From NCBI RefSeq assembly GCF_040366405.1, contig NZ_BAABWF010000001.1, forward strand, positions 886,563 to 910,562: DNA of 24,000 bases, in the 5' to 3' direction. The notes below the pieces were generated by a model. That model saw nothing but the letters and a program-made list of their open reading frames with translations, made no database searches and was not told the DNA's origin. The first letter of the stretch is position 1. Each line of letters opens with the position of its first letter. The position numbers were made by a program, and so were the translations under genes. This document shows, piece after piece, positions 10,476 through 23,785 of this stretch. Source of the DNA: Arenicella sp. 4NH20-0111. GTDB lineage: Bacteria > Pseudomonadota > Gammaproteobacteria > Arenicellales > Arenicellaceae.

Positions 10476-11282
10476 TTATTTGCAGGCGACTAAGTACGCT
10501 ACATAAGATAAGCATGCTTCGCCCTCTTCGGTTTTTGTGAATATGCCGTCGCCGCTTTCGCCATCCTCGTCAGTGCCTTCCCAATAACAGTCGGCTGAGG
10601 CAAACCCAGCCTCGATTAATATTTCACGTAATTCAGGCAGGCCCCATAGGCGCCAATCGTAGGTAAAAGCATCTTGCATCTCTGTTCCGTCTGGAAACCG
10701 AAAATGAATATGTAAGCGCGCCTCACCAGTGATCGGATTGATTGAATCTTGGTCCCAAACGTAGGTAAAGCTGCCGTCGTCTTGCTCGGTCTCTTCTTCC
10801 ATTTCTTGGATGCTTTCAGGCCCGCCATGGAGATCACAAATAAAAATGCCATCGTCCGCCAAGTCTTCATACACCCGTTTAAAGTAGTCAAGCATTTCTA
10901 CTCGAGTCTTAAAAATCCAATACGAAAAATTTTGCGCGCATCTTACGTCAGGTGATTTCCTGCTCGGGTTACGCGCGTCTTCTTCAAATTGTTGGACTCT
11001 ATCAGCGTCTTTTCCTAACGGCGCAAGGTTGTGCTTTTTTCCCCACCTTAATGGTTCTGGATCAATGTCGTAAGATTCGGTTGTACAGTGTTTGCCCAGT
11101 CGGACCCAATAAGAGGACAGTAGGCAAGTGCCGCAAAAATCTTCTCTGAAGTGTTTGGGTTTTTTTCCGCGCACCTCTTTGTATGTATCAAACAAAAAGT
11201 CTGCATCTTGTTCTGCTGATTGCACAGCGCGTTGATACAAGACGTATTTGTCTGCTGTTTTAGCGGTAAATTTCTTTCCCAT
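10476..11282 (-). CDS. Probable class I SAM-dependent methyltransferase-like protein
   Basis: 268-aa ORF. REDFCGTC (motif I-like, compare DxGCGTG), YDIDPEPL (acidic end of beta-2) and GIFICDLHG suggest a Rossmann methyltransferase fold. The assignment is by motif only. Confidence 0.45.
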   Translation of the reverse strand: MGKKFTAKTADKYVLYQRAVQSAEQDADFLFDTYKEVRGKKPKHFREDFCGTCLLSSYWVRLGKHCTTESYDIDPEPLRWGKKHNLAPLGKDADRVQQFEEDARNPSRKSPDVRCAQNFSYWIFKTRVEMLDYFKRVYEDLADDGIFICDLHGGPESIQEMEEETEQDDGSFTYVWDQDSINPITGEARLHIHFRFPDGTEMQDAFTYDWRLWGLPELREILIEAGFASADCYWEGTDEDGESGDGIFTKTEEGEACLSYVAYLVACK

Positions 11283-11578
11283 ACTGCTGGCTGTTTTGGC
11301 TATGAATTTATGTCAAGAGTTTAGCTGAAAAGAGCCCACGGAAGTAGGCATGAATTAGACGCTTTACTTTACTATTTAGCACTCCTTGCCGATGAGTGGT
11401 TTTTTCTGTTTTCACAAACGACTATGATGTGTGCTTAGCTGTAATTTGGTTGCAAGTTCACGTTGTAATTTGGGGTAGATTAACACTGCACTTTTGAGTG
11501 TCTATTTTAATAACATCACGTAAGTTATTGAATTTTTTGGCAAGTGCTTTTGTCAACATATTTTTCAAAAAATATGAG

Positions 11579-11587
11579 TTATACACA
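11579..11587 (+). promoter_or_regulatory. Perfect DnaA-box consensus TTATACACA
   Basis: Exact match to TTATNCACA, immediately after an AT-only near-palindrome CATATTTTTCAAAAAATATG (11557-11576). Confidence 0.4.
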
Positions 11588-11753
11588 AAATTTGAATTGC
11601 CCTTAAAAATCTTGAGTCTGATCACTGTAATGTCTTTGAAATATTTATTAACACCATAAGCTATTGATATTAAACGATAATTTAAACTGCTTAAAAAATG
11701 AGCAGACTCTGTGAGGCCAATGTTTACGCCGTGTTACAGTGCCGAAACGCATT

Positions 11754-11800
11754 TTACCCACAAAGTTATCCACAGGTTGTGTGAGTAACTTTGTGGGTAA
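11754..11800. promoter_or_regulatory. Palindromic cluster of four DnaA-box-like 9-mers upstream of priA
   Basis: The boxes are TTACCCACA (11754-62), TTATCCACA (11766-74, perfect), TGTGAGTAA (11780-88, reverse) and TGTGGGTAA (11792-800, reverse). Spacers are 3/5/3 nt. The outer 18-bp arms 11751-11768 and 11786-11803 are perfect reverse complements. Confidence 0.5.
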
Positions 11801-11842
11801 AATATCTAAAAAAAACTTGACTCCGCTAAAGCCGCATAAAAC

Positions 11843-14116
11843 ATGAGTTTGCAGGAAAACCGTCCGCATAAAGACCTGATAGTTTCGGTGGCAGTTCCTG
11901 TCCCTCTTAGGCAAACGTTTGACTTTTTGGTGCCTAAAAGTTTGCTCGATCCGCCCATGTCAGACTCGCCTGGGGGGGAGGTGAATGTGGCGGCAAGAAC
12001 GCGCGTTAAGGTGTCGTTTGCAAACCGGACATTGATCGGTGTCATTGTAGAGGTGAAAACCGAGTCTGATTTTCCGTTGAGTAGGCTTAAGCCAATCGTT
12101 GAATTGTTCAGGGACCCACCTCTCTTTGACGATGCTCTCTGGAATAGTTTGCTGTGGCTTTCTCGTTATTACTTGGCGCCGATAGGCGAGGTTTTGGAAT
12201 CGGCCTTGCCGGTTTCTCTTAGAAAAGGCAATGAGTTAACGCCTTCGTCCGAAAGAGTCTGGAGACTTTCAGAGCACGGTCGTAGTTCGGCGGTAGACGA
12301 GTTAAATAGAGCACCCTTGCAGCTAGCAATAGTTCGCCGTTTCATGAAGCAAAGCACACTCAGTTCTAAAGAGTTTAAACAAGAGTCTGGCAATTGGCAT
12401 TCACCAGTTAAGAGTCTTGTTGATAAAGGTTGGTTAGAAGAGTTTACTCAAGAGCCTATTTTATTGGGCTCTGATATTTGTGAGAAAAGTAGCGTTACGT
12501 TAACCAATGAACAGAGTGTCGCGACCGAAGCATTGACAGACTTGATGAACGCCGAAGAGTTTTCTTGTTCACTATTGCACGGTGTGACTGGAAGCGGGAA
12601 AACCGAAGTCTACTTTGACATCATTGGAAAAACGTTGGCAAAGGGTAAAACGGTTTTAGTGCTTGTGCCTGAAATTGGCCTCACACCGCAATTGCTTGAG
12701 CGAATACAGCGACGTTTTGAGCAACCGATGACCGTATTGCATTCAGGCCTTAATGATACTGAACGACACACAGCTTGGTGGCACGCGAGTCAGGGGCATG
12801 CAAAAATTGTGCTTGGAACTCGTTCGGCGGTCTTTACACAGATTCCCAAACTGGGACTCATTGTGGTGGACGAAGAGCACGATGGGTCGTTTAAACAACA
12901 AGACAGCGTTCGTTATCAGGCGCGGGATTTGGCCGTGTACCGGGCAAAGCAAGCAAACGTGCCAATAGTGCTGGGCTCGGCGACTCCGTCAATGGAGACC
13001 TACGCCAATGCAAAGGCAGGAAGGTATTTACACCTACGATTAACAAAACGAGCCAGTGATGTGGCTCTGCCAAAAATTGAACTGTTTGATTTAAACACGC
13101 AGCCGGTTATTGACGGACTTTGCCCTGCCATGACCGAGGCGGTTGAACATACGTTATCAACCGGTAAACAGGTCATGCTGTTCTTAAACCGGCGTGGGTA
13201 TGCTCCCGTTCATTATTGTGGAGAATGCAAACAAGCGGCTAAATGTCATCGTTGTGATAGTAACCTTACTGTGCATCAGCGTGCTAATCGACTTCGTTGC
13301 CACCATTGTGGTTATGAGGGGCGGTTGCTTAATGATTGCCGTAGTTGCCACACCAAAGATTCGATGCTTGAGGTTGGGGATGGCACGCAACGAGTTGAAT
13401 CGGCATTGGCCACGCGTTTTCCTGAGGCAAGAGTTCAACGTATTGATCGTGATAATACCCAACGCAAGGGTGCATTAACGGCCGTGCTAGAGAAAGCCAG
13501 AAACAGCGAAGTCGACATTATCTTAGGTACCCAATTGATTACTAAGGGCCATGACTTCCCTAACGTTGGCATGGTTGGAATATTAGAGTGTGATCACGGT
13601 CTGTACAGCACAGACTATCGAGCTACTGAAACTTTGTTTCAGCAAGTTCTTCAAGTTTCGGGTCGGGCCGGTCGCCGTCAGGACGTCGGGCGAGTGTACA
13701 TTCAATCGAGATTTCCCGAACACCCATTTTTTGACTATATTAAGCAACATGACTTTGATGGGTTTGCGGATAACCTGCTTGCTGAACGCAAATCAGTGGG
13801 CTTTCCACCGTTTGGGTATTTTGCCTTACTTAGGGCCGAATCAACGCATCAAGCGAAAGCCTTACAATTTTTGCGCAGAGCTAAATCTGATTGTGGTCAA
13901 CAAGATGGTGTCATCGTGATGGATGCGGTGCCAGCTCCCATGGAGAGAAAAGCAGGCCGGTTTCGTGCTCAACTATTGTTTATGTCTTCGCAACGCTCTT
14001 CTCTAAACGCCATGTTATCGAATTGGTTACACTACATAGCGACAGACAAAGAGGCTAAAAAAGCAGCCTCATCGGTCCGATGGAATTTGGATATAGACCC
14101 ACTAGATCACTATTAG
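11843..14116 (+). CDS. priA: Primosomal replication restart helicase PriA (protein N')
   Basis: 757-aa ORF. It has the N-terminal VAVPVPLRQTFDFLVP, Walker A GVTGSGKTEVY, DEEH box VVDEEHDGSFKQ, and a Cys-rich zinc region CGECKQAAKCHRCDSNLTVHQRANRLRCHHCGYEGRLLNDCRSC. It is colinear with E. coli PriA. Confidence 0.95.
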   Translation: MSLQENRPHKDLIVSVAVPVPLRQTFDFLVPKSLLDPPMSDSPGGEVNVAARTRVKVSFANRTLIGVIVEVKTESDFPLSRLKPIVELFRDPPLFDDALWNSLLWLSRYYLAPIGEVLESALPVSLRKGNELTPSSERVWRLSEHGRSSAVDELNRAPLQLAIVRRFMKQSTLSSKEFKQESGNWHSPVKSLVDKGWLEEFTQEPILLGSDICEKSSVTLTNEQSVATEALTDLMNAEEFSCSLLHGVTGSGKTEVYFDIIGKTLAKGKTVLVLVPEIGLTPQLLERIQRRFEQPMTVLHSGLNDTERHTAWWHASQGHAKIVLGTRSAVFTQIPKLGLIVVDEEHDGSFKQQDSVRYQARDLAVYRAKQANVPIVLGSATPSMETYANAKAGRYLHLRLTKRASDVALPKIELFDLNTQPVIDGLCPAMTEAVEHTLSTGKQVMLFLNRRGYAPVHYCGECKQAAKCHRCDSNLTVHQRANRLRCHHCGYEGRLLNDCRSCHTKDSMLEVGDGTQRVESALATRFPEARVQRIDRDNTQRKGALTAVLEKARNSEVDIILGTQLITKGHDFPNVGMVGILECDHGLYSTDYRATETLFQQVLQVSGRAGRRQDVGRVYIQSRFPEHPFFDYIKQHDFDGFADNLLAERKSVGFPPFGYFALLRAESTHQAKALQFLRRAKSDCGQQDGVIVMDAVPAPMERKAGRFRAQLLFMSSQRSSLNAMLSNWLHYIATDKEAKKAASSVRWNLDIDPLDHY

Positions 14117-14151: not shown

Positions 14152-14682
14152 TTACTCTTCAAGCACGGAGACCATCAGGTCATCCGATACGTCCTCTAAT
14201 ATTTCTTCCAAGTTTGATTCACTCATGTCGTCGGGCATGGCCAATGAAAGGTGTGCTTTGAACAGCATGTAGCCGGCCATCGATGCGCTACTGACTTCGG
14301 TGTCTATGTTGTCAACGTTTACGTTATTTTCAGCTAAGGCTTGGGTTATTTCTTGGACAATGCCTGGACGGTCGTTGGCTTCGACCATGATATACAGGGC
14401 ATTCACTTCATCATCGTCGCTCTTGATCCTGGCATCGTGATGTACGGTGATGTTGATGCCTTCCTCGCTTAAGTTTGCAAGCGCGGCGGATAGTGAGTCT
14501 CGTTTATCTTCGGTGACTTCAAAGTGAACGATGCCAGTAAATTGACCGCACAGCCGAGACAGGCTGCTCTCTTGCCAACTCGCGTTGTGCTTAAGTGCTG
14601 TATCTGACAGGCTTCTGACGATTCCAGGGCGATCTTCGGCGAAGACGGTAATAACAACCGTTTTTAAATTTGATGCGTTCAT
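14152..14682 (-). CDS. Tandem ACT-domain protein (GcvR-like, glycine cleavage system regulator family)
   Basis: The track ORF 14152..14778 overlaps selO, so I place the start at internal ATG 14682 (MNASNLKTVVITVFAEDRPGIV...), giving 176 aa. There are two ACT-type repeats, each with DRPGIV, as in GcvR. Confidence 0.68.
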   Translation of the reverse strand: MNASNLKTVVITVFAEDRPGIVRSLSDTALKHNASWQESSLSRLCGQFTGIVHFEVTEDKRDSLSAALANLSEEGINITVHHDARIKSDDDEVNALYIMVEANDRPGIVQEITQALAENNVNVDNIDTEVSSASMAGYMLFKAHLSLAMPDDMSESNLEEILEDVSDDLMVSVLEE

Positions 14683-14710
14683 AAGAATAATTTGTTTATG
14701 TAGTCGTTTA

Positions 14711-16288
14711 TTACGATGAGCAGGATAACATTGAACAGCCAACTTTGGTGCGCGCCCATTCAGGGCGTTTTTGTGCATAGACTTCGAATTCTGGCTGTTC
14801 GTCGTAAGGCTTGCGCAATACGTTCAACAGCTCATTGACCATAGAATGGTCACCGTTCTCCGATTTATCAATGGCTTGTTGTGCTAAATAGTTTCGGAAT
14901 ACGTATTTAGGATTAACGCTATTCATGAGCGCAAACCGAGTTTCGTTTGACGAGGAACAGCCGTCCGTGCGAGTTTGGTAGGTTGTTAGCCAAGCTTCCA
15001 GTTGTGATTTGTATTCCGAACTGTGTTCGGATTGATAGAAAACGCCATGCCGACAGAAGTGATCGTAATCTAAATTTTCGTGGGCCAATGCACGGTAAAA
15101 CCGAGTCATGTCAGTTTCCGTAGCAACAAGCAGACTTTCAAGCTGCTTAAGCAGTTCGGAATCACCGGCCATAACCTCATTCAAACCTAGCTTAGTGGCC
15201 ATCATCCGTTGCCATTGCTCAGAGTAGCTGGATTGAAAATCCGTGAGTATTTGCTCAAGCTGTTCGGTTTCCTCAATAAGAGGATAGAGTGCATTCGCAA
15301 GCTGGTAGCAATTCCACAATGCGATATTCGCTTGATCACCGAAGCGGTAGCGGGCTTGGTTAGCGTCGGTTGTATTCGGAGTCCAGTCTGGGTTGTAGTC
15401 GTCTAACCAGCCGTAAGGGCCGTAATCTATGGTTAAACCGTGGATTGACATATTGTCGGTGTTCATCACGCCGTGCACAAAACCCACTCGCATCCAATCA
15501 ACGATCATGGTGACCGTGAGATCACATACTTTAGAAAAGAATGCGACGATGCAGTCTTTTGTGTACCCTGATTCATCCGCAGGATATTGCTCTAGTAATT
15601 CGGGGTAATAGTGACGAATAGTGTATTGGGTGAGCGCGCGAAGTTCGTCTAATTCGTTGCGCGATGCAAAAATTTGAAAGCTGCCAAAACGGATAAAGCT
15701 CGGTGCCATACGACACACGACGGCACCGGGCTCGTAAGCGGCGTTGCCATCATAGAGCATGTCTCGCATTACCTGTTCACCCGTCGTCATTAGGCTTAAT
15801 GCACGCGTTGTTGGTACGCCTAAGTGGTGCATGGCTTCACTGCAGATGTACTCTCTTACTGAAGAGCGTAAAACCGCTAAGCCATCGGCTGTTCTTGAGT
15901 ACGGGGTAGGCCCAGCGCCTTTAAGCTGTAAAGCCCAGCGTGCGCGGTTCTCATTGACAACTTCGCCGAGGTTGATGGCTCGGCCATCACCGAGTTGGCC
16001 CGCCCAATTGCCAAACTGGTGCCCGCCGTAACACATGGCGTATGGCTTCATTCCGTCGAGTAATTTGTTTCCACTAAAGGCTTCCAAAAACGGCGTGCTT
16101 GCGTGGTCGGCATCAGACAAGCCTATAAGCTGACCAGCCTCTGCCGAAACGCTAACGATCTTTGGGCCGCTTACCGGCGTTGGAGCAACATACGAAAAAC
16201 AGGCGTTGTTAACTTGGCGTCGCTGATTGGTGGTTTGACTGTCGGCTGGCAGCTCTTCAGTGAAACGGTTGTCGAAATTTAGCTTCAT
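14711..16288 (-). CDS. selO: Protein adenylyltransferase SelO (YdiU/UPF0061 pseudokinase-fold AMPylase)
   Basis: 525-aa ORF. GGHQFGNWAGQLGDGRAINLGE, LKGAGPTPYSR, GVMNTDNMSIHGLTIDYGPYGWLD and a C-terminal ...CSS tail all align with E. coli YdiU. Confidence 0.92.
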   Translation of the reverse strand: MKLNFDNRFTEELPADSQTTNQRRQVNNACFSYVAPTPVSGPKIVSVSAEAGQLIGLSDADHASTPFLEAFSGNKLLDGMKPYAMCYGGHQFGNWAGQLGDGRAINLGEVVNENRARWALQLKGAGPTPYSRTADGLAVLRSSVREYICSEAMHHLGVPTTRALSLMTTGEQVMRDMLYDGNAAYEPGAVVCRMAPSFIRFGSFQIFASRNELDELRALTQYTIRHYYPELLEQYPADESGYTKDCIVAFFSKVCDLTVTMIVDWMRVGFVHGVMNTDNMSIHGLTIDYGPYGWLDDYNPDWTPNTTDANQARYRFGDQANIALWNCYQLANALYPLIEETEQLEQILTDFQSSYSEQWQRMMATKLGLNEVMAGDSELLKQLESLLVATETDMTRFYRALAHENLDYDHFCRHGVFYQSEHSSEYKSQLEAWLTTYQTRTDGCSSSNETRFALMNSVNPKYVFRNYLAQQAIDKSENGDHSMVNELLNVLRKPYDEQPEFEVYAQKRPEWARTKVGCSMLSCSS

Positions 16289-21406: not shown

Positions 21407-21650
21407 AGATTTTTGGCTTCAATCGCAACTAGTGTGGCCGTGAATGGAGAGGCAAAATTCGCGAGTCTTTTCTCGCAATTGAAACGTTGATACAGCGCCG
21501 GTTTACCCAGTACTTTCGCAGAATCTGCGGTGGCTAGTTAACTTTGCCGCCTCTATGCGCGCATTTTTGTCCATTCACAAACCGAATAACGCAGTATAAA
21601 CAAGACTTTATAAAAGAAGCTGGGAATGTTAATGTGCGCTGACTCGGACA

Positions 21651-21670
21651 AAAATGAGCATGCTCATTTT
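21651..21670. repeat. Perfect 20-bp palindrome AAAATGAGCATGCTCATTTT
   Basis: Read directly: 21651-21660 is the exact reverse complement of 21661-21670. It lies in the non-coding gap between cca and the first cassette. Function unknown. Confidence 0.9.
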
Positions 21671-21780
21671 CATTCCAAAGTAAAAGGAGATATTTTTGAA
21701 ATACTTTACTAATTCAATGGCTTGCGAATCTTTTTTGAGGCCGCTCTTAGCGCGTAAACGCGCATGCACACTAATACGCT

Positions 21781-21787
21781 GTTAGCT
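21781..21787 (+). other. First GTTRRRY core site (GTTAGCT): left boundary of the cassette array (attI-like or attC remnant)
   Basis: GTTAGCT lies 3 nt before the first cassette ATG and is identical to the R' core of the attC at 22300-22306. No paired R''/L'' arm could be found upstream. Confidence 0.5.
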
Positions 21788-21789
21788 AG

Positions 21790-22239
21790 ATGAATGATGT
21801 CGATTTAATCAAAGCTCATCTTGTCGGTGACTTTGTTACCAGTTTCTCTGTTGGTTCGACTGGGTGGTCAATTCAATTTTCGGAATGTGAATATGTGCTT
21901 TTGGCGCAAAATCTAGCTTCACCAGTTGAAGCTCTACTTAACGAACTCTATCAAAAGAATTTTCCCGTAGTTAGTAAAACTGCTGATAAAGGAGACGTCG
22001 CTAAATCCACGATAATGTCTTGTTGTCTCAGACAAAAGATTCGGGATATAAAATTAGATACAAAGAAAAACCTAGAGATAAATTACGAAAATGATATATC
22101 AATAACATGTCCTACTGATATGGATATGGTTGATTGGCAATGGTCATTTACCCGCGATGGAAAATGCCCATACACTACAAATACACTTTTAATAGGTTGT
22201 CTTTGGCAAGGAGAGATAGAGCGTGGAAAAACTAGCTAA
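21790..22239 (+). CDS. Cassette 1 orphan protein (149 aa, soluble, 6 Cys)
   Basis: The ORF starts 8 nt after the core site. Its TAA stop (22237-22239) lies inside the attC inverse core AGCTAAC. No recognised domain. Confidence 0.7.
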   Translation: MNDVDLIKAHLVGDFVTSFSVGSTGWSIQFSECEYVLLAQNLASPVEALLNELYQKNFPVVSKTADKGDVAKSTIMSCCLRQKIRDIKLDTKKNLEINYENDISITCPTDMDMVDWQWSFTRDGKCPYTTNTLLIGCLWQGEIERGKTS

Positions 22240-22306
22240 CAAGTCTCAAAACAAACGCCTTCGGCTCGGACGCGTTTTCAACGCGCCCGTTTGAGAGGCG
22301 TTAGCT
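22234..22306 (+). repeat. attC site 1 (73 bp)
   Basis: AGCTAACAAGTCTCAAAAC...GGACGCGTTTTCAACGCGCCC...GTTTGAGAGGCGTTAGCT. R''/L'' (TAACAAGTCTCAAAC) pairs with L'/R' (GTTTGAGA-GGC-GTTA), leaving unpaired bases. Confidence 0.85.
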
Positions 22307-22311
22307 TCACG

Positions 22312-22716
22312 ATGGATATCGAGTATCTGAAAAGGAAGCGGCAGAAATCCGTCCAACAACAAAACGCTGTCCTTAAACATAAAATTTCTTGTTGTGCTGA
22401 GAACTGGCTCAACGGTGAAAAATTACCTAAGCCAATAGAGAAATACCTTAATGAAAAAGGCATTAATAGAGACAATGCTCTCCTAATTGAATATCACGGA
22501 GGTCCAGCACAATACCAAATGTCATACTCAGGAATACTAATCACAAATGATGAAGATTTCATAGGATTTGAGTTTGACCTTAATGTTCGTGAAACGAACA
22601 TAGAGTATGTTGAAAACTTTGGTAAAGTATCTATTGAAACATCTTGTCATTTACATGGCGTTGGTAAGTCGTTTGGTTGTCTCAGTAAGGAAGTCCTGCA
22701 TGAAATCAGAAGCTAA
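22312..22716 (+). CDS. Cassette 2 orphan protein (134 aa; basic N-terminal helix)
   Basis: The track ORF starts at TTG 22291, inside attC1 and across the recombination point. ATG 22312, 11 nt into the cassette, is preferred. The TAA stop (22714-16) lies inside AGCTAAC of attC2. Confidence 0.68.
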   Translation: MDIEYLKRKRQKSVQQQNAVLKHKISCCAENWLNGEKLPKPIEKYLNEKGINRDNALLIEYHGGPAQYQMSYSGILITNDEDFIGFEFDLNVRETNIEYVENFGKVSIETSCHLHGVGKSFGCLSKEVLHEIRS

Positions 22717-22785
22717 CAAGAACCAAAACGCTGCCTACGGCAGTTCGGACGCGTTTTCAACGCGCCCGTTTGCTTGGCGTTAAGC
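22711..22785 (+). repeat. attC site 2 (75 bp)
   Basis: AGCTAACAAGAACCAAAAC...GGACGCGTTTTCAACGCGCCC...GTTTGCTTGGCGTTAAGC. It has the same 21-nt core as attC1 and attC3. Confidence 0.85.
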
Positions 22786-22795
22786 GCATAAAGTC

Positions 22796-23206
22796 ATGGG
22801 AGAATCCTTACTAAACCAGTTAGCGGCCTCTAATGTGCCCTTAATCGAAATAGTAGTTCGATTTAAAGAAGGAATAGATTATAAGAATGCAACTGAGCAA
22901 TTTAACTCACTAGGCGAAGACATACACCTCAGTGGGGGAGATTGGTATAACCAACCTAACCTTAGAGTAGGTGATGCATCCGCAGAAGCACTGTTTAGAT
23001 TATTCGGGTGGAAGGTTCACAGAGTACCTTTGATTCTGGAGGGCCATGAGAAAGGGGCGACCACGGAAAGTGAGTACTATTGCTGGGATGAATTGGAGCC
23101 ACAATGTTGTTTGCCTTCAACTATGCAAGACATAATTGGAGGCATATCTTTTAGTCAACCCGGCTCAAATGATGAGGGGCAATGGTATGAACCTAAATTC
23201 GCCTAA
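22796..23206 (+). CDS. Cassette 3 orphan protein (136 aa, acidic, soluble)
   Basis: The ATG is 16 nt after the core site, and the TAA stop (23204-06) lies inside GCCTAAC of attC3. No recognised domain. Confidence 0.7.
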   Translation: MGESLLNQLAASNVPLIEIVVRFKEGIDYKNATEQFNSLGEDIHLSGGDWYNQPNLRVGDASAEALFRLFGWKVHRVPLILEGHEKGATTESEYYCWDELEPQCCLPSTMQDIIGGISFSQPGSNDEGQWYEPKFA

Positions 23207-23281
23207 CAAGCGCTTTAAATATCCCTCCCGCTGGTCGGGCGGGACGCGTTTTCAACGCGCCCCGTTAAGCGGGCGTTAGTG
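23201..23281 (+). repeat. attC site 3 (81 bp)
   Basis: GCCTAACAAGCGCTTTAA...GGACGCGTTTTCAACGCGCCC...CGTTAAGCGGGCGTTAGTG. CGCTTTAA pairs with TTAAGCG with one extra T. Confidence 0.85.
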
Positions 23282-23296
23282 ATACGAGAGTTCTGA

Positions 23297-23692
23297 ATGA
23301 ACAAAGCAATTTATTTTAAGACATCACTTTTTGACCCTTCAAAGGAAGATGAAAATGATATAAACCCTATCTACGGCCAATCATTGCTAATTTGGCTTCG
23401 AGATAAGCTTGGTAGTGAACTAGAGTTCTCTGAAATCGGTACCGAAGATTGGGGCTGGTATTGTTATATCAACTGGAAGGGCAGGCAGTACTTAATTGGA
23501 TCAATAGCTCATTTTGAAGAAGGTGATGATCCCAATATGGATACCGATTGGATATTCCAAGTGGATAAAACCCGTTCGTTTAAAGAAGTAATATTTGGAA
23601 AAGAAAAAATGACAAAGAATGATCCATGCTTTCTCTTCTTCAAAAAGTATTTTGAAGAAGAGCCTCAAATTAAGGACGTAGAAATTGGCTAA
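23297..23692 (+). CDS. Cassette 4 orphan protein (131 aa, acidic, aromatic-rich EDWGWYCYINW segment)
   Basis: The ATG is 21 nt after the core site with a GAGAG SD-like sequence 6 nt upstream. The stop TAA (23690-92) is 2 nt before attC4. Confidence 0.72.
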   Translation: MNKAIYFKTSLFDPSKEDENDINPIYGQSLLIWLRDKLGSELEFSEIGTEDWGWYCYINWKGRQYLIGSIAHFEEGDDPNMDTDWIFQVDKTRSFKEVIFGKEKMTKNDPCFLFFKKYFEEEPQIKDVEIG

Positions 23693-23694
23693 AT

Positions 23695-23785
23695 CACTAA
23701 CAAGTTTCCAAAGTGCACTCCACTCCCTGCGGTCGTTCCGCGGGACACCGCATACGACGCGGTGCCCCTTGGCAAGGCGTTATAT
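23695..23785 (+). repeat. attC site 4 (91 bp; different internal sequence)
   Basis: CACTAACAAGTTTCCAAAG...CCTTGGCAAGGCGTTATAT. The ends follow the same R''/R' pattern, but the centre lacks the shared 21-nt core. Instead it carries two short hairpins (CCCTGCGG/CCGCGGG and CACCGC/GCGGTG). Confidence 0.75.

Follow-up and report, generated by a model that had tools for sequence, protein, structure and literature searches.

The core of a DnaA-reactivating sequence (DARS) consists of three DnaA boxes, with box I opposed to boxes II and III, and its spacing is identical in the two E. coli sites, DARS1 and DARS2 (PMC5742627; PMC6868365; PMC11724364). A 5-bp gap separates box I from box II, and in DARS1 box II matches the consensus in full (PMC6868365; PMC5742627). 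DARS1 is about 100 bp long and does not need IHF or Fis (PMC5742627); E. coli DARS2 requires both proteins (PMC4245941). The head-to-head 5-bp arrangement has been assigned to DARS and contrasted with oriC and datA (PMC6868365; PMC11724364; PMC5742627). In oriC, the boxes are arrayed head-to-tail beside a duplex-unwinding element (PMC6868365). At datA, IHF bending has been proposed to join the DnaA molecules bound to boxes 2 and 3 (PMC11724364; PMC5742627), and datA promotes ATP hydrolysis, the opposite outcome to that of DARS (PMC11724364). In the literature covered, the only DARS sites with documented conservation are those linked to uvrB and mutH in close relatives, and supplementary figure S10 of Kasho 2014 is limited to 8 E. 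coli-proximal species.

By promoting the release of ADP from ADP-DnaA, a DARS regenerates ATP-DnaA. In E. coli, these sites have a central part in timing replication initiation, and they have been characterized almost only there. To our knowledge, biochemical and genetic tests of DARS have been confined to E. coli and its close relatives, and the DARS activity proposed for the locus described here is therefore read from its sequence. The original DARS paper, Fujimitsu et al. 2009, reportedly listed DARS candidates in other species. A full-text literature search for DARS together with priA returned no paper connecting the two; the Fujimitsu et al. 2009 candidate lists, which may include priA-linked sites, lay outside this search.

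Genomic Context

The window, by which we mean the whole 24-kb stretch of DNA analyzed, carries priA, the gene of the replication-restart helicase, on its plus strand at 11843-14116 (757 aa; NCBIfam NF004067, primosomal protein N', E = 1e-262). All coordinates given are positions in the window unless another locus is named. A PriA protein identical to this one is encoded on the 72-kb contig JBFPEJ010001819.1 of GCA_041156845.1 (locus L140); this contig ends about 80 nt past the priA stop, whereas the window runs on for another 10 kb and therefore stems from another, or an improved, assembly of one and the same organism. Upstream lies a divergent gene of 268 aa (10476-11282) with no Pfam or NCBIfam match; two 268-aa ORFs are present upstream, and the possibility that they are paralogues was rejected on comparison. 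On the minus strand, an ACT-domain ORF (14152-14778) overlaps a SelO/YdiU ORF (14711-16288) by 68 nt, and the start of the ACT-domain ORF has probably been called too far upstream. The stretch at 21500-23700 has a low GC content (about 0.40 versus 0.46-0.49 elsewhere) and may have been acquired as an island; the four small ORFs that it holds (131-149 aa) are all on the same strand.

The Palindrome Upstream of priA

Direct reading of positions 11751-11803 gives ATTTTACCCACAAAGTTATCCACA-GGTTG-TGTGAGTAACTTTGTGGGTAAAAT, a 53-bp near-palindrome containing four DnaA-box 9-mers. The original prediction, made from the sequence before this analysis, had described such an element with two forward and two reverse boxes about 40 bp before priA. 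The repeat search and the box coordinates agree with that description, and the distance from the palindrome to the ATG is 39 nt. The arms (11751-11774 and 11780-11803) are 24 nt each and 92% complementary, with a 5-nt spacer between them, and the outermost 18 nt (11751-11768 versus 11786-11803) are perfect reverse complements, as had been claimed.

The four boxes form a block at 11754-11800. On the plus strand, TTACCCACA (11754-11762) is followed after a 3-bp gap, in the same direction, by the perfect consensus TTATCCACA (11766-11774), which was recovered by both the box scan and the geometry scan. On the minus strand, TTACTCACA (11780-11788) opposes the perfect box over a 5-bp gap. These three are the equivalents of DARS boxes III, II, and I, respectively. 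The fourth box, again TTACCCACA (11792-11800, minus strand), mirrors box III across box I, with a gap of 3 bp. All three imperfect boxes carry C at position 4, so the box scan confirms the predicted pattern of one perfect box and three with this single change.

The signal is local. Boxes with at most one mismatch number 24 in the whole 24-kb window, against 21.5 expected, and a window-wide enrichment was rejected on these figures. Both perfect boxes of the window, together with 6 of the 24 boxes at this threshold, fall in one 560-bp intergenic region. Four boxes within 47 bp were found in none of 300 Markov-1 simulated windows, where the maximum was three (reached in 4 of the 300). The original description of the element proved right in each point that could be checked. 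The three-box DARS geometry is expected by chance about 7e-7 times per 24 kb and about 1e-4 times per 4-Mb genome. Within the window, the 15-mer TTACCCACAAAGTTA is confined to the two palindrome arms, on which ground a dispersed repeat or mobile element was rejected.

Comparison with the E. coli DARS Cores

Read on the minus strand, the core in the window is TTACTCACA (I)-caacc-TGTGGATAA (II)-ctt-TGTGGGTAA (III). The DARS1 core of E. coli MG1655 is TTATCCACT-attcc-TGTGGATAA-cca-TGTGTATTA, and that of DARS2 is TTATTCACC-N5-TGTGGATAG-N3-TGTGAAGAA. Both E. coli sites have a core geometry identical to that of the window, with box I opposed to boxes II and III across gaps of 5 and 3 bp. The middle box of DARS1 is the perfect TGTGGATAA, as in the window, whereas box II of DARS2 carries one mismatch. 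The mirrored fourth box of this genome has no counterpart in E. coli DARS2.

We searched for this arrangement with a geometry scanner (box I, 5 bp, inverted box II, 3 bp, box III), using the E. coli DARS1 and DARS2 regions as controls. Each control region gave one match, which was DARS1 or DARS2 itself. In the window, the scanner matched at a single place, on both strands owing to the fourth box. The orientation that defines a DARS, box I against boxes II and III, is present in the window core.

Like DARS1, the element stands upstream of a DNA-repair or replication gene (uvrB for DARS1, priA here), although DARS1 is about 380 bp from the uvrB start and the window core is 54 bp from that of priA. 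The neighbor of DARS2 is mutH. DARS1 has no need for IHF or Fis, whereas the window element is accompanied by conserved consensus sites for both.

In the right half of the E. coli DARS2 region, a second core-like arrangement, TTATCCCAG-N5-TGTGGATAA-N3-GGTGTAAGA, lies about 320 bp from the DARS2 core (about 1955-1989 of locus L017). It probably corresponds to the known dispensable DARS2 boxes IV-VI.

Conservation at Orthologous priA Loci

A PriA-homology scan with one genome per species gave 15 loci, from Arenicella or gammaproteobacterial MAGs, with PriA 61-77% identical. Fourteen PriA-retrieved loci include upstream sequence (PriA 61-71% identical), and their retrieval was independent of the box pattern. 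The three-box core is present upstream of priA in all 14 relatives, and the geometry scanner returned exactly one match in each. Gaps of 5 bp (boxes I and II) and 3 bp (boxes II and III) are found in the window, in 14 of 14 relatives, and in both E. coli controls. Box II, the high-affinity consensus box on which a DARS assembly nucleates, is the perfect TTATCCACA at all 15 loci without variation. Box I, found in every one of the 14 relatives, varies only at the degenerate N position (TTACACACA, TTACCCACA). Box III is TTATCAACA, TTACTCACA, or TTATTAACA in the relatives and never has more than one mismatch.

Conversely, the upstream alignment contains no fourth box in any of the 14 relatives, and their symmetry is limited to AAAGTTATCCACA-N5-TGTGAGTAACTTT. 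Both the fourth box and the perfect palindrome, with its full symmetry over 11751-11803, are specific to this genome. About 330 bp before priA align as conserved blocks, which are better conserved than the PriA protein. It is three boxes and about 175 bp of regulatory DNA upstream of them that are conserved as a unit, rather than four boxes. Conservation of the palindrome upstream of priA, which had been suggested as a check, is thus confirmed for the three-box core (14/14) and fails for the fourth box and the long palindrome (0/14).

Candidate Cofactor Sites on the Box III Side

Module positions are counted from box I as position 1, running toward box III and beyond. On this count, the module to which the core belongs extends over about 210 bp. 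A Fis-consensus site, GCTTAAAAAATGAGC (consensus GNNYANNNNNTRNNC; 11689-11703), lies at position 86. An IHF-consensus site on the plus strand, TAAGCTATTGATA (11657-11669), matches the consensus YAANNNNTTGATW perfectly and lies at position 120, so that the IHF site by which DARS2 is recognized is present at the sequence level. A distal perfect DnaA box, TTATACACA (11579-11587, plus strand), follows at position 202. In the PriA-homology set, the Fis-consensus match at 86 occurs at 14 of 15 loci, an IHF-consensus match with at most one mismatch at 120/121 occurs at all 15, and so does the perfect distal box TTATACACA, at 201-204. The Fis-consensus site is on the core side of the IHF site. Its consensus is degenerate and it forms an A/T tract; another protein or intrinsic curvature could be the cause of its conservation.

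Further matches carry less weight. A weak DnaA box, TTATTAACA (11645-11653, plus strand), is not generally conserved. A second Fis-consensus match, GGCCAATGTTTACGC (11715-11729), is of low weight, with a match at that position in 3 loci only. A second IHF-like site with one mismatch, TAAGTTATTGAAT (11521-11533, plus strand), belongs to the Arenicella group only, where a perfect second IHF consensus is found at 254-256 in 11 of the 14 relatives. This part of the sequence (about 11490-11545, module positions of about 245-300) is an extra block beyond the generic module, conserved in the Arenicella group only. It could be the promoter region of the divergent 268-aa gene or an extension of the DnaA-regulatory locus.

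In E. coli DARS2, taken in the same orientation, IBS1-2 occupy 94-122, a perfect match to the Fis consensus lies at 146, and box V, also perfect, is at 212. Both elements therefore carry, on the box III side, a regulatory arm with IHF- and Fis-consensus sites and a perfect box at about 200-212, and both have the same polarity, the core being followed by the cofactor sites and then by the perfect box. The IHF site of the window has the same orientation as IBS2 but lies 10 bp farther out (120-132 versus 110-122). The conserved Fis-like site is core-proximal in the window (86), whereas the essential FBS2-3 of DARS2 lie beyond the IBS (146). The distal DnaA box is inverted relative to that of E. 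coli DARS2. At the level of sequence, the element thus has every feature that defines a DARS core, together with the IHF site of DARS2.

Recurrence in Metagenomes

Metagenome contigs were scanned with the exact pattern TTAYNCACA-N5-TGTGGATAA-N3-TGTNNNTAA, which has about 23 specified bases and for which a rough chance estimate is well under one match. More than 120 stretches matched, and 80 loci were retrieved. Among the matches listed, a Fis-consensus match at 85-88 occurs at 36 of 77 loci, an IHF-consensus match (at most one mismatch, same orientation) at 117-124 occurs at 46 of 77, and a DnaA box (at most one mismatch) at 188-218 occurs at 56 of 77. On the mirror side, used as a control at 74 of the loci listed, the corresponding numbers are 0 for Fis, 0 for IHF, and 2 for the DnaA box. 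The counts at fixed positions indicate a recurrent structured element and not a local accident. None of the 80 metagenomic cores among the matches listed has an equivalent of box 4 with at most one mismatch. The only other core among them that reads on both strands (L073, 3697-3743), and so also forms a symmetrical set of four boxes, has weak outer boxes with 2 mismatches.

The genes beside the module are diverse. Among the matches listed, they include priA, hemW, xseA, clpS/clpA with cobA, ttcA (accompanied by a VOC-family gene), sbcB, and hemE. We also noted a gene beside hemW that is presumably rdgB, by reading the sequence, and a neighbor that we take, likewise from the sequence, to be ProS-like. 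Both flanking genes converge on the module at 21 of the 45 listed loci with both flanks resolved, and at these convergent gene ends the module is therefore not a promoter element. It appears that DARS-type modules stand strikingly often beside DNA-repair or nuclease genes, the examples being priA, xseA, and sbcB in the present set and, in E. coli, uvrB and mutH.

The commonest neighbor is priA, at 10-11 of the 80 loci among the matches listed. In the window, in 14 of 14 relatives, and in all 11 distant loci listed, it lies without exception on the box I side, with transcription leading away from the core. The distance between core and priA is 35-121 bp at 8 of the 10 distant loci listed that have a called priA start, and hemE lies upstream in several of the distant priA-linked loci. 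These loci come from at least seven deeply divergent lineages, with pairwise PriA identity mostly of 32-54% and GC contents of 0.32-0.65; therefore, the linkage with priA is either ancient or repeatedly selected. The sequence upstream of E. coli priA contains no core, only a single box with one mismatch. No MutH match was found beside any of the 80 cores among the matches listed, and with priA as the neighbor in the window, the possibility of a MutH-linked positional orthologue of DARS2 was rejected. The element is not a positional orthologue of DARS1 or DARS2.

Proposed Function

Taken together, the box orientation, the 5- and 3-bp spacing, the perfect middle box, the positionally conserved IHF- and Fis-consensus sites, and the distal box strongly support the earlier suggestion of a datA/DARS-like locus, in its DARS form. 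We estimate at roughly 0.62 the probability that the element acts as a DnaA-reactivating sequence of the DARS2 type. Its membership of the DARS structural class is much more secure than this activity. Such a DARS2-type element may, in addition, affect priA transcription.

We computed the architecture, the conservation, the positional statistics, and the exclusion of oriC, and we infer the protein binding, the nucleotide exchange, and the coupling to priA. By analogy with E. coli, ADP-DnaA would bind the perfect box II (11766-11774). From there, it would recruit two further DnaA molecules, one bound head-to-head on box I (11780-11788), beyond the 5-bp gap, and the other head-to-tail on box III (11754-11762), beyond the 3-bp gap. 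The head-to-head AAA+ contact would expel ADP, and apo-DnaA would then leave and rebind ATP, restoring initiation-competent ATP-DnaA. DNA bending by Fis (11689-11703) and IHF (11657-11669) would, in concert with DnaA bound at the distal box (11579-11587), switch the reaction on or set its timing. In this genome, because the fourth box mirrors box III, the core reads as a DARS core on both strands. The fourth box (11792-11800) may give box I a head-to-tail partner of its own, so that both members of the head-to-head pair would be partnered. The core also stands close to priA, and box 4 overlaps the only -10-like hexamer before the gene; DnaA occupancy therefore probably influences, or is influenced by, priA transcription, and the two processes likely interfere with each other.

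Alternative Explanations

The same ingredients could make a DnaA sink or an inactivator of the datA type, in which the box cluster and IHF titrate DnaA or stimulate DnaA-ATP hydrolysis and thereby lower the initiation potential. E. coli datA, the DDAH locus, and the window element are both non-coding DnaA-box clusters with a functionally placed IHF site. Here, the site lies between the core and the distal box, and bending could bring distal-box DnaA onto core DnaA. The locus also has two perfect and several near-perfect boxes, and the direction of its effect on DnaA is not readable from the letters themselves. However, the hallmark of the element is the head-to-head pair of boxes I and II with its 5-bp gap, completed by box III at 3 bp. 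E. coli datA has no head-to-head 5-bp pair and no such core. We consider a sink or inactivator unlikely.

A function as an operator only, in which DnaA, together with IHF and Fis, would control the priA promoter but take no part in nucleotide exchange, also appears improbable, despite the position of the core. DnaA-box operators are present in promoters such as those of dnaA and nrdAB and uvrB P3. As in the window, their boxes lie near the gene start and may overlap a -10-like hexamer. From the end of the core (box I) to the priA ATG there are 54 nt, and box 4 overlaps the -10-like hexamer TAAAAT (11798-11803, plus strand), a candidate part of the priA promoter for which there is no good -35. 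The metagenomic loci point in the same direction, as priA is the commonest neighbor among the matches listed, always on the box I side and in at least seven deep lineages. In many lineages, the core lies about 35-120 bp from priA, the position expected of a promoter operator.

Against an operator as the sole function, the promoter scan found no canonical sigma-70 promoter between the element and the priA ATG. There is no Shine-Dalgarno sequence there either, and both absences agree with the original prediction. Manual inspection yielded only weak -10-like hexamers and no convincing -35, and most relatives have A/T-rich hexamers at a comparable position. Nothing like the element precedes priA in E. 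coli. DnaA-box promoter operators show neither a fixed three-box geometry nor a conserved Fis/IHF arm, whereas the window module has both, and an operator would need neither the exact DARS spacing nor about 175 bp of fixed upstream sites. The same module, with the same internal spacing, has many unrelated genes as neighbors, and among the matches listed, 21 of the 45 loci with resolved flanks are convergent gene ends with no promoter to control. Because the module is found at such promoter-less loci, an operator cannot be the whole story. Of the two readings first proposed, the DARS-like one is the better supported, and acting as a DnaA operator for priA could be a secondary function.

The 17 nt immediately before the priA ATG (11826-11842) are strongly conserved in the Arenicella group, reading AAAGCCGCATAAAAC in the window and AAACCCGCATAAAC in relatives (L004-L015). 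No Shine-Dalgarno sequence is present in these 17 nt in the Arenicella group; at distant priA-linked loci, for example L027 and L090, an ordinary GGAG-type site takes their place. The conserved 17 nt may represent a translation signal of a non-SD kind, or a site for a protein or an RNA.

It is very improbable that the palindrome serves another palindrome-binding regulator, or that it is a cruciform, terminator, or small RNA that merely resembles DnaA boxes. As single-stranded DNA, it folds into a strong hairpin (-19.8 kcal/mol, z = -7.8), and arms of 24 nt are typical of dimeric regulators. However, relatives do not share the long palindrome: box 4 is missing from them, and what is conserved is an asymmetric unit with box III on a single side; moreover, box I varies at its N position with no compensating change in box II. 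No Rfam family reached the threshold in the window, and a non-coding RNA was rejected accordingly. An intrinsic terminator was also rejected, as none was found at the element and there is no terminator-like T-run on either strand.

A chromosomal or secondary replication origin is scarcely credible: the locus resembles the DnaA-oligomerization region of oriC in that an AT-rich intergenic region (560 bp, GC 0.35) holds IHF and Fis sites as well as several DnaA boxes, but oriC has head-to-tail arrays and an unwinding element, whereas here the plus-strand GC3 skew is +0.110 on the left (12 genes) and +0.119 on the right (12 genes) whatever the gene orientation, the cumulative skew rises across the entire 24-kb window, no dnaA, dnaN, mnmG, mioC, or rpmH lies within 24 kb, the repeat search found no tandem AT-rich 13-mers or unwinding-element repeats, the intergenic region has one GATC (versus 81 in the window) and no GATC cluster, and the module occurs in many different gene contexts. 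As the GC3 skew does not switch at the locus, the leading strand does not switch either, and oriC was rejected for this reason and because both the unwinding element and the origin genes are absent.

Conclusions

A broader proposal can be made tentatively, as we judge it possible but rather less than probable. The element may represent a distinct, apparently ancient DARS architecture (core, Fis-like site at 86, IHF at 120, and a box at about 202) that is widespread in Proteobacteria beyond the enteric/Vibrio group. It would sit preferentially at the priA 5' end, box I being turned toward the gene, and would physically couple DnaA recycling to priA expression; in the present genome, the core would have become a two-fold symmetric "double" one.

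About 90 loci from very different bacteria carry a DARS2-like module that is defined by its sequence and has constant internal spacing; the metagenomic part of these loci comprises the matches listed. The recycling of DnaA by DNA elements may therefore be a general phenomenon, and it is now possible to predict candidates for the module in uncultured lineages. The Fis and IHF sites in their different order, and a four-box symmetric core that occurs naturally, provide ready-made variants for testing the head-to-head DnaA model. The recurrent, polarity-conserved link with priA suggests a testable tie between origin-dependent initiation by DnaA and origin-independent restart by PriA.
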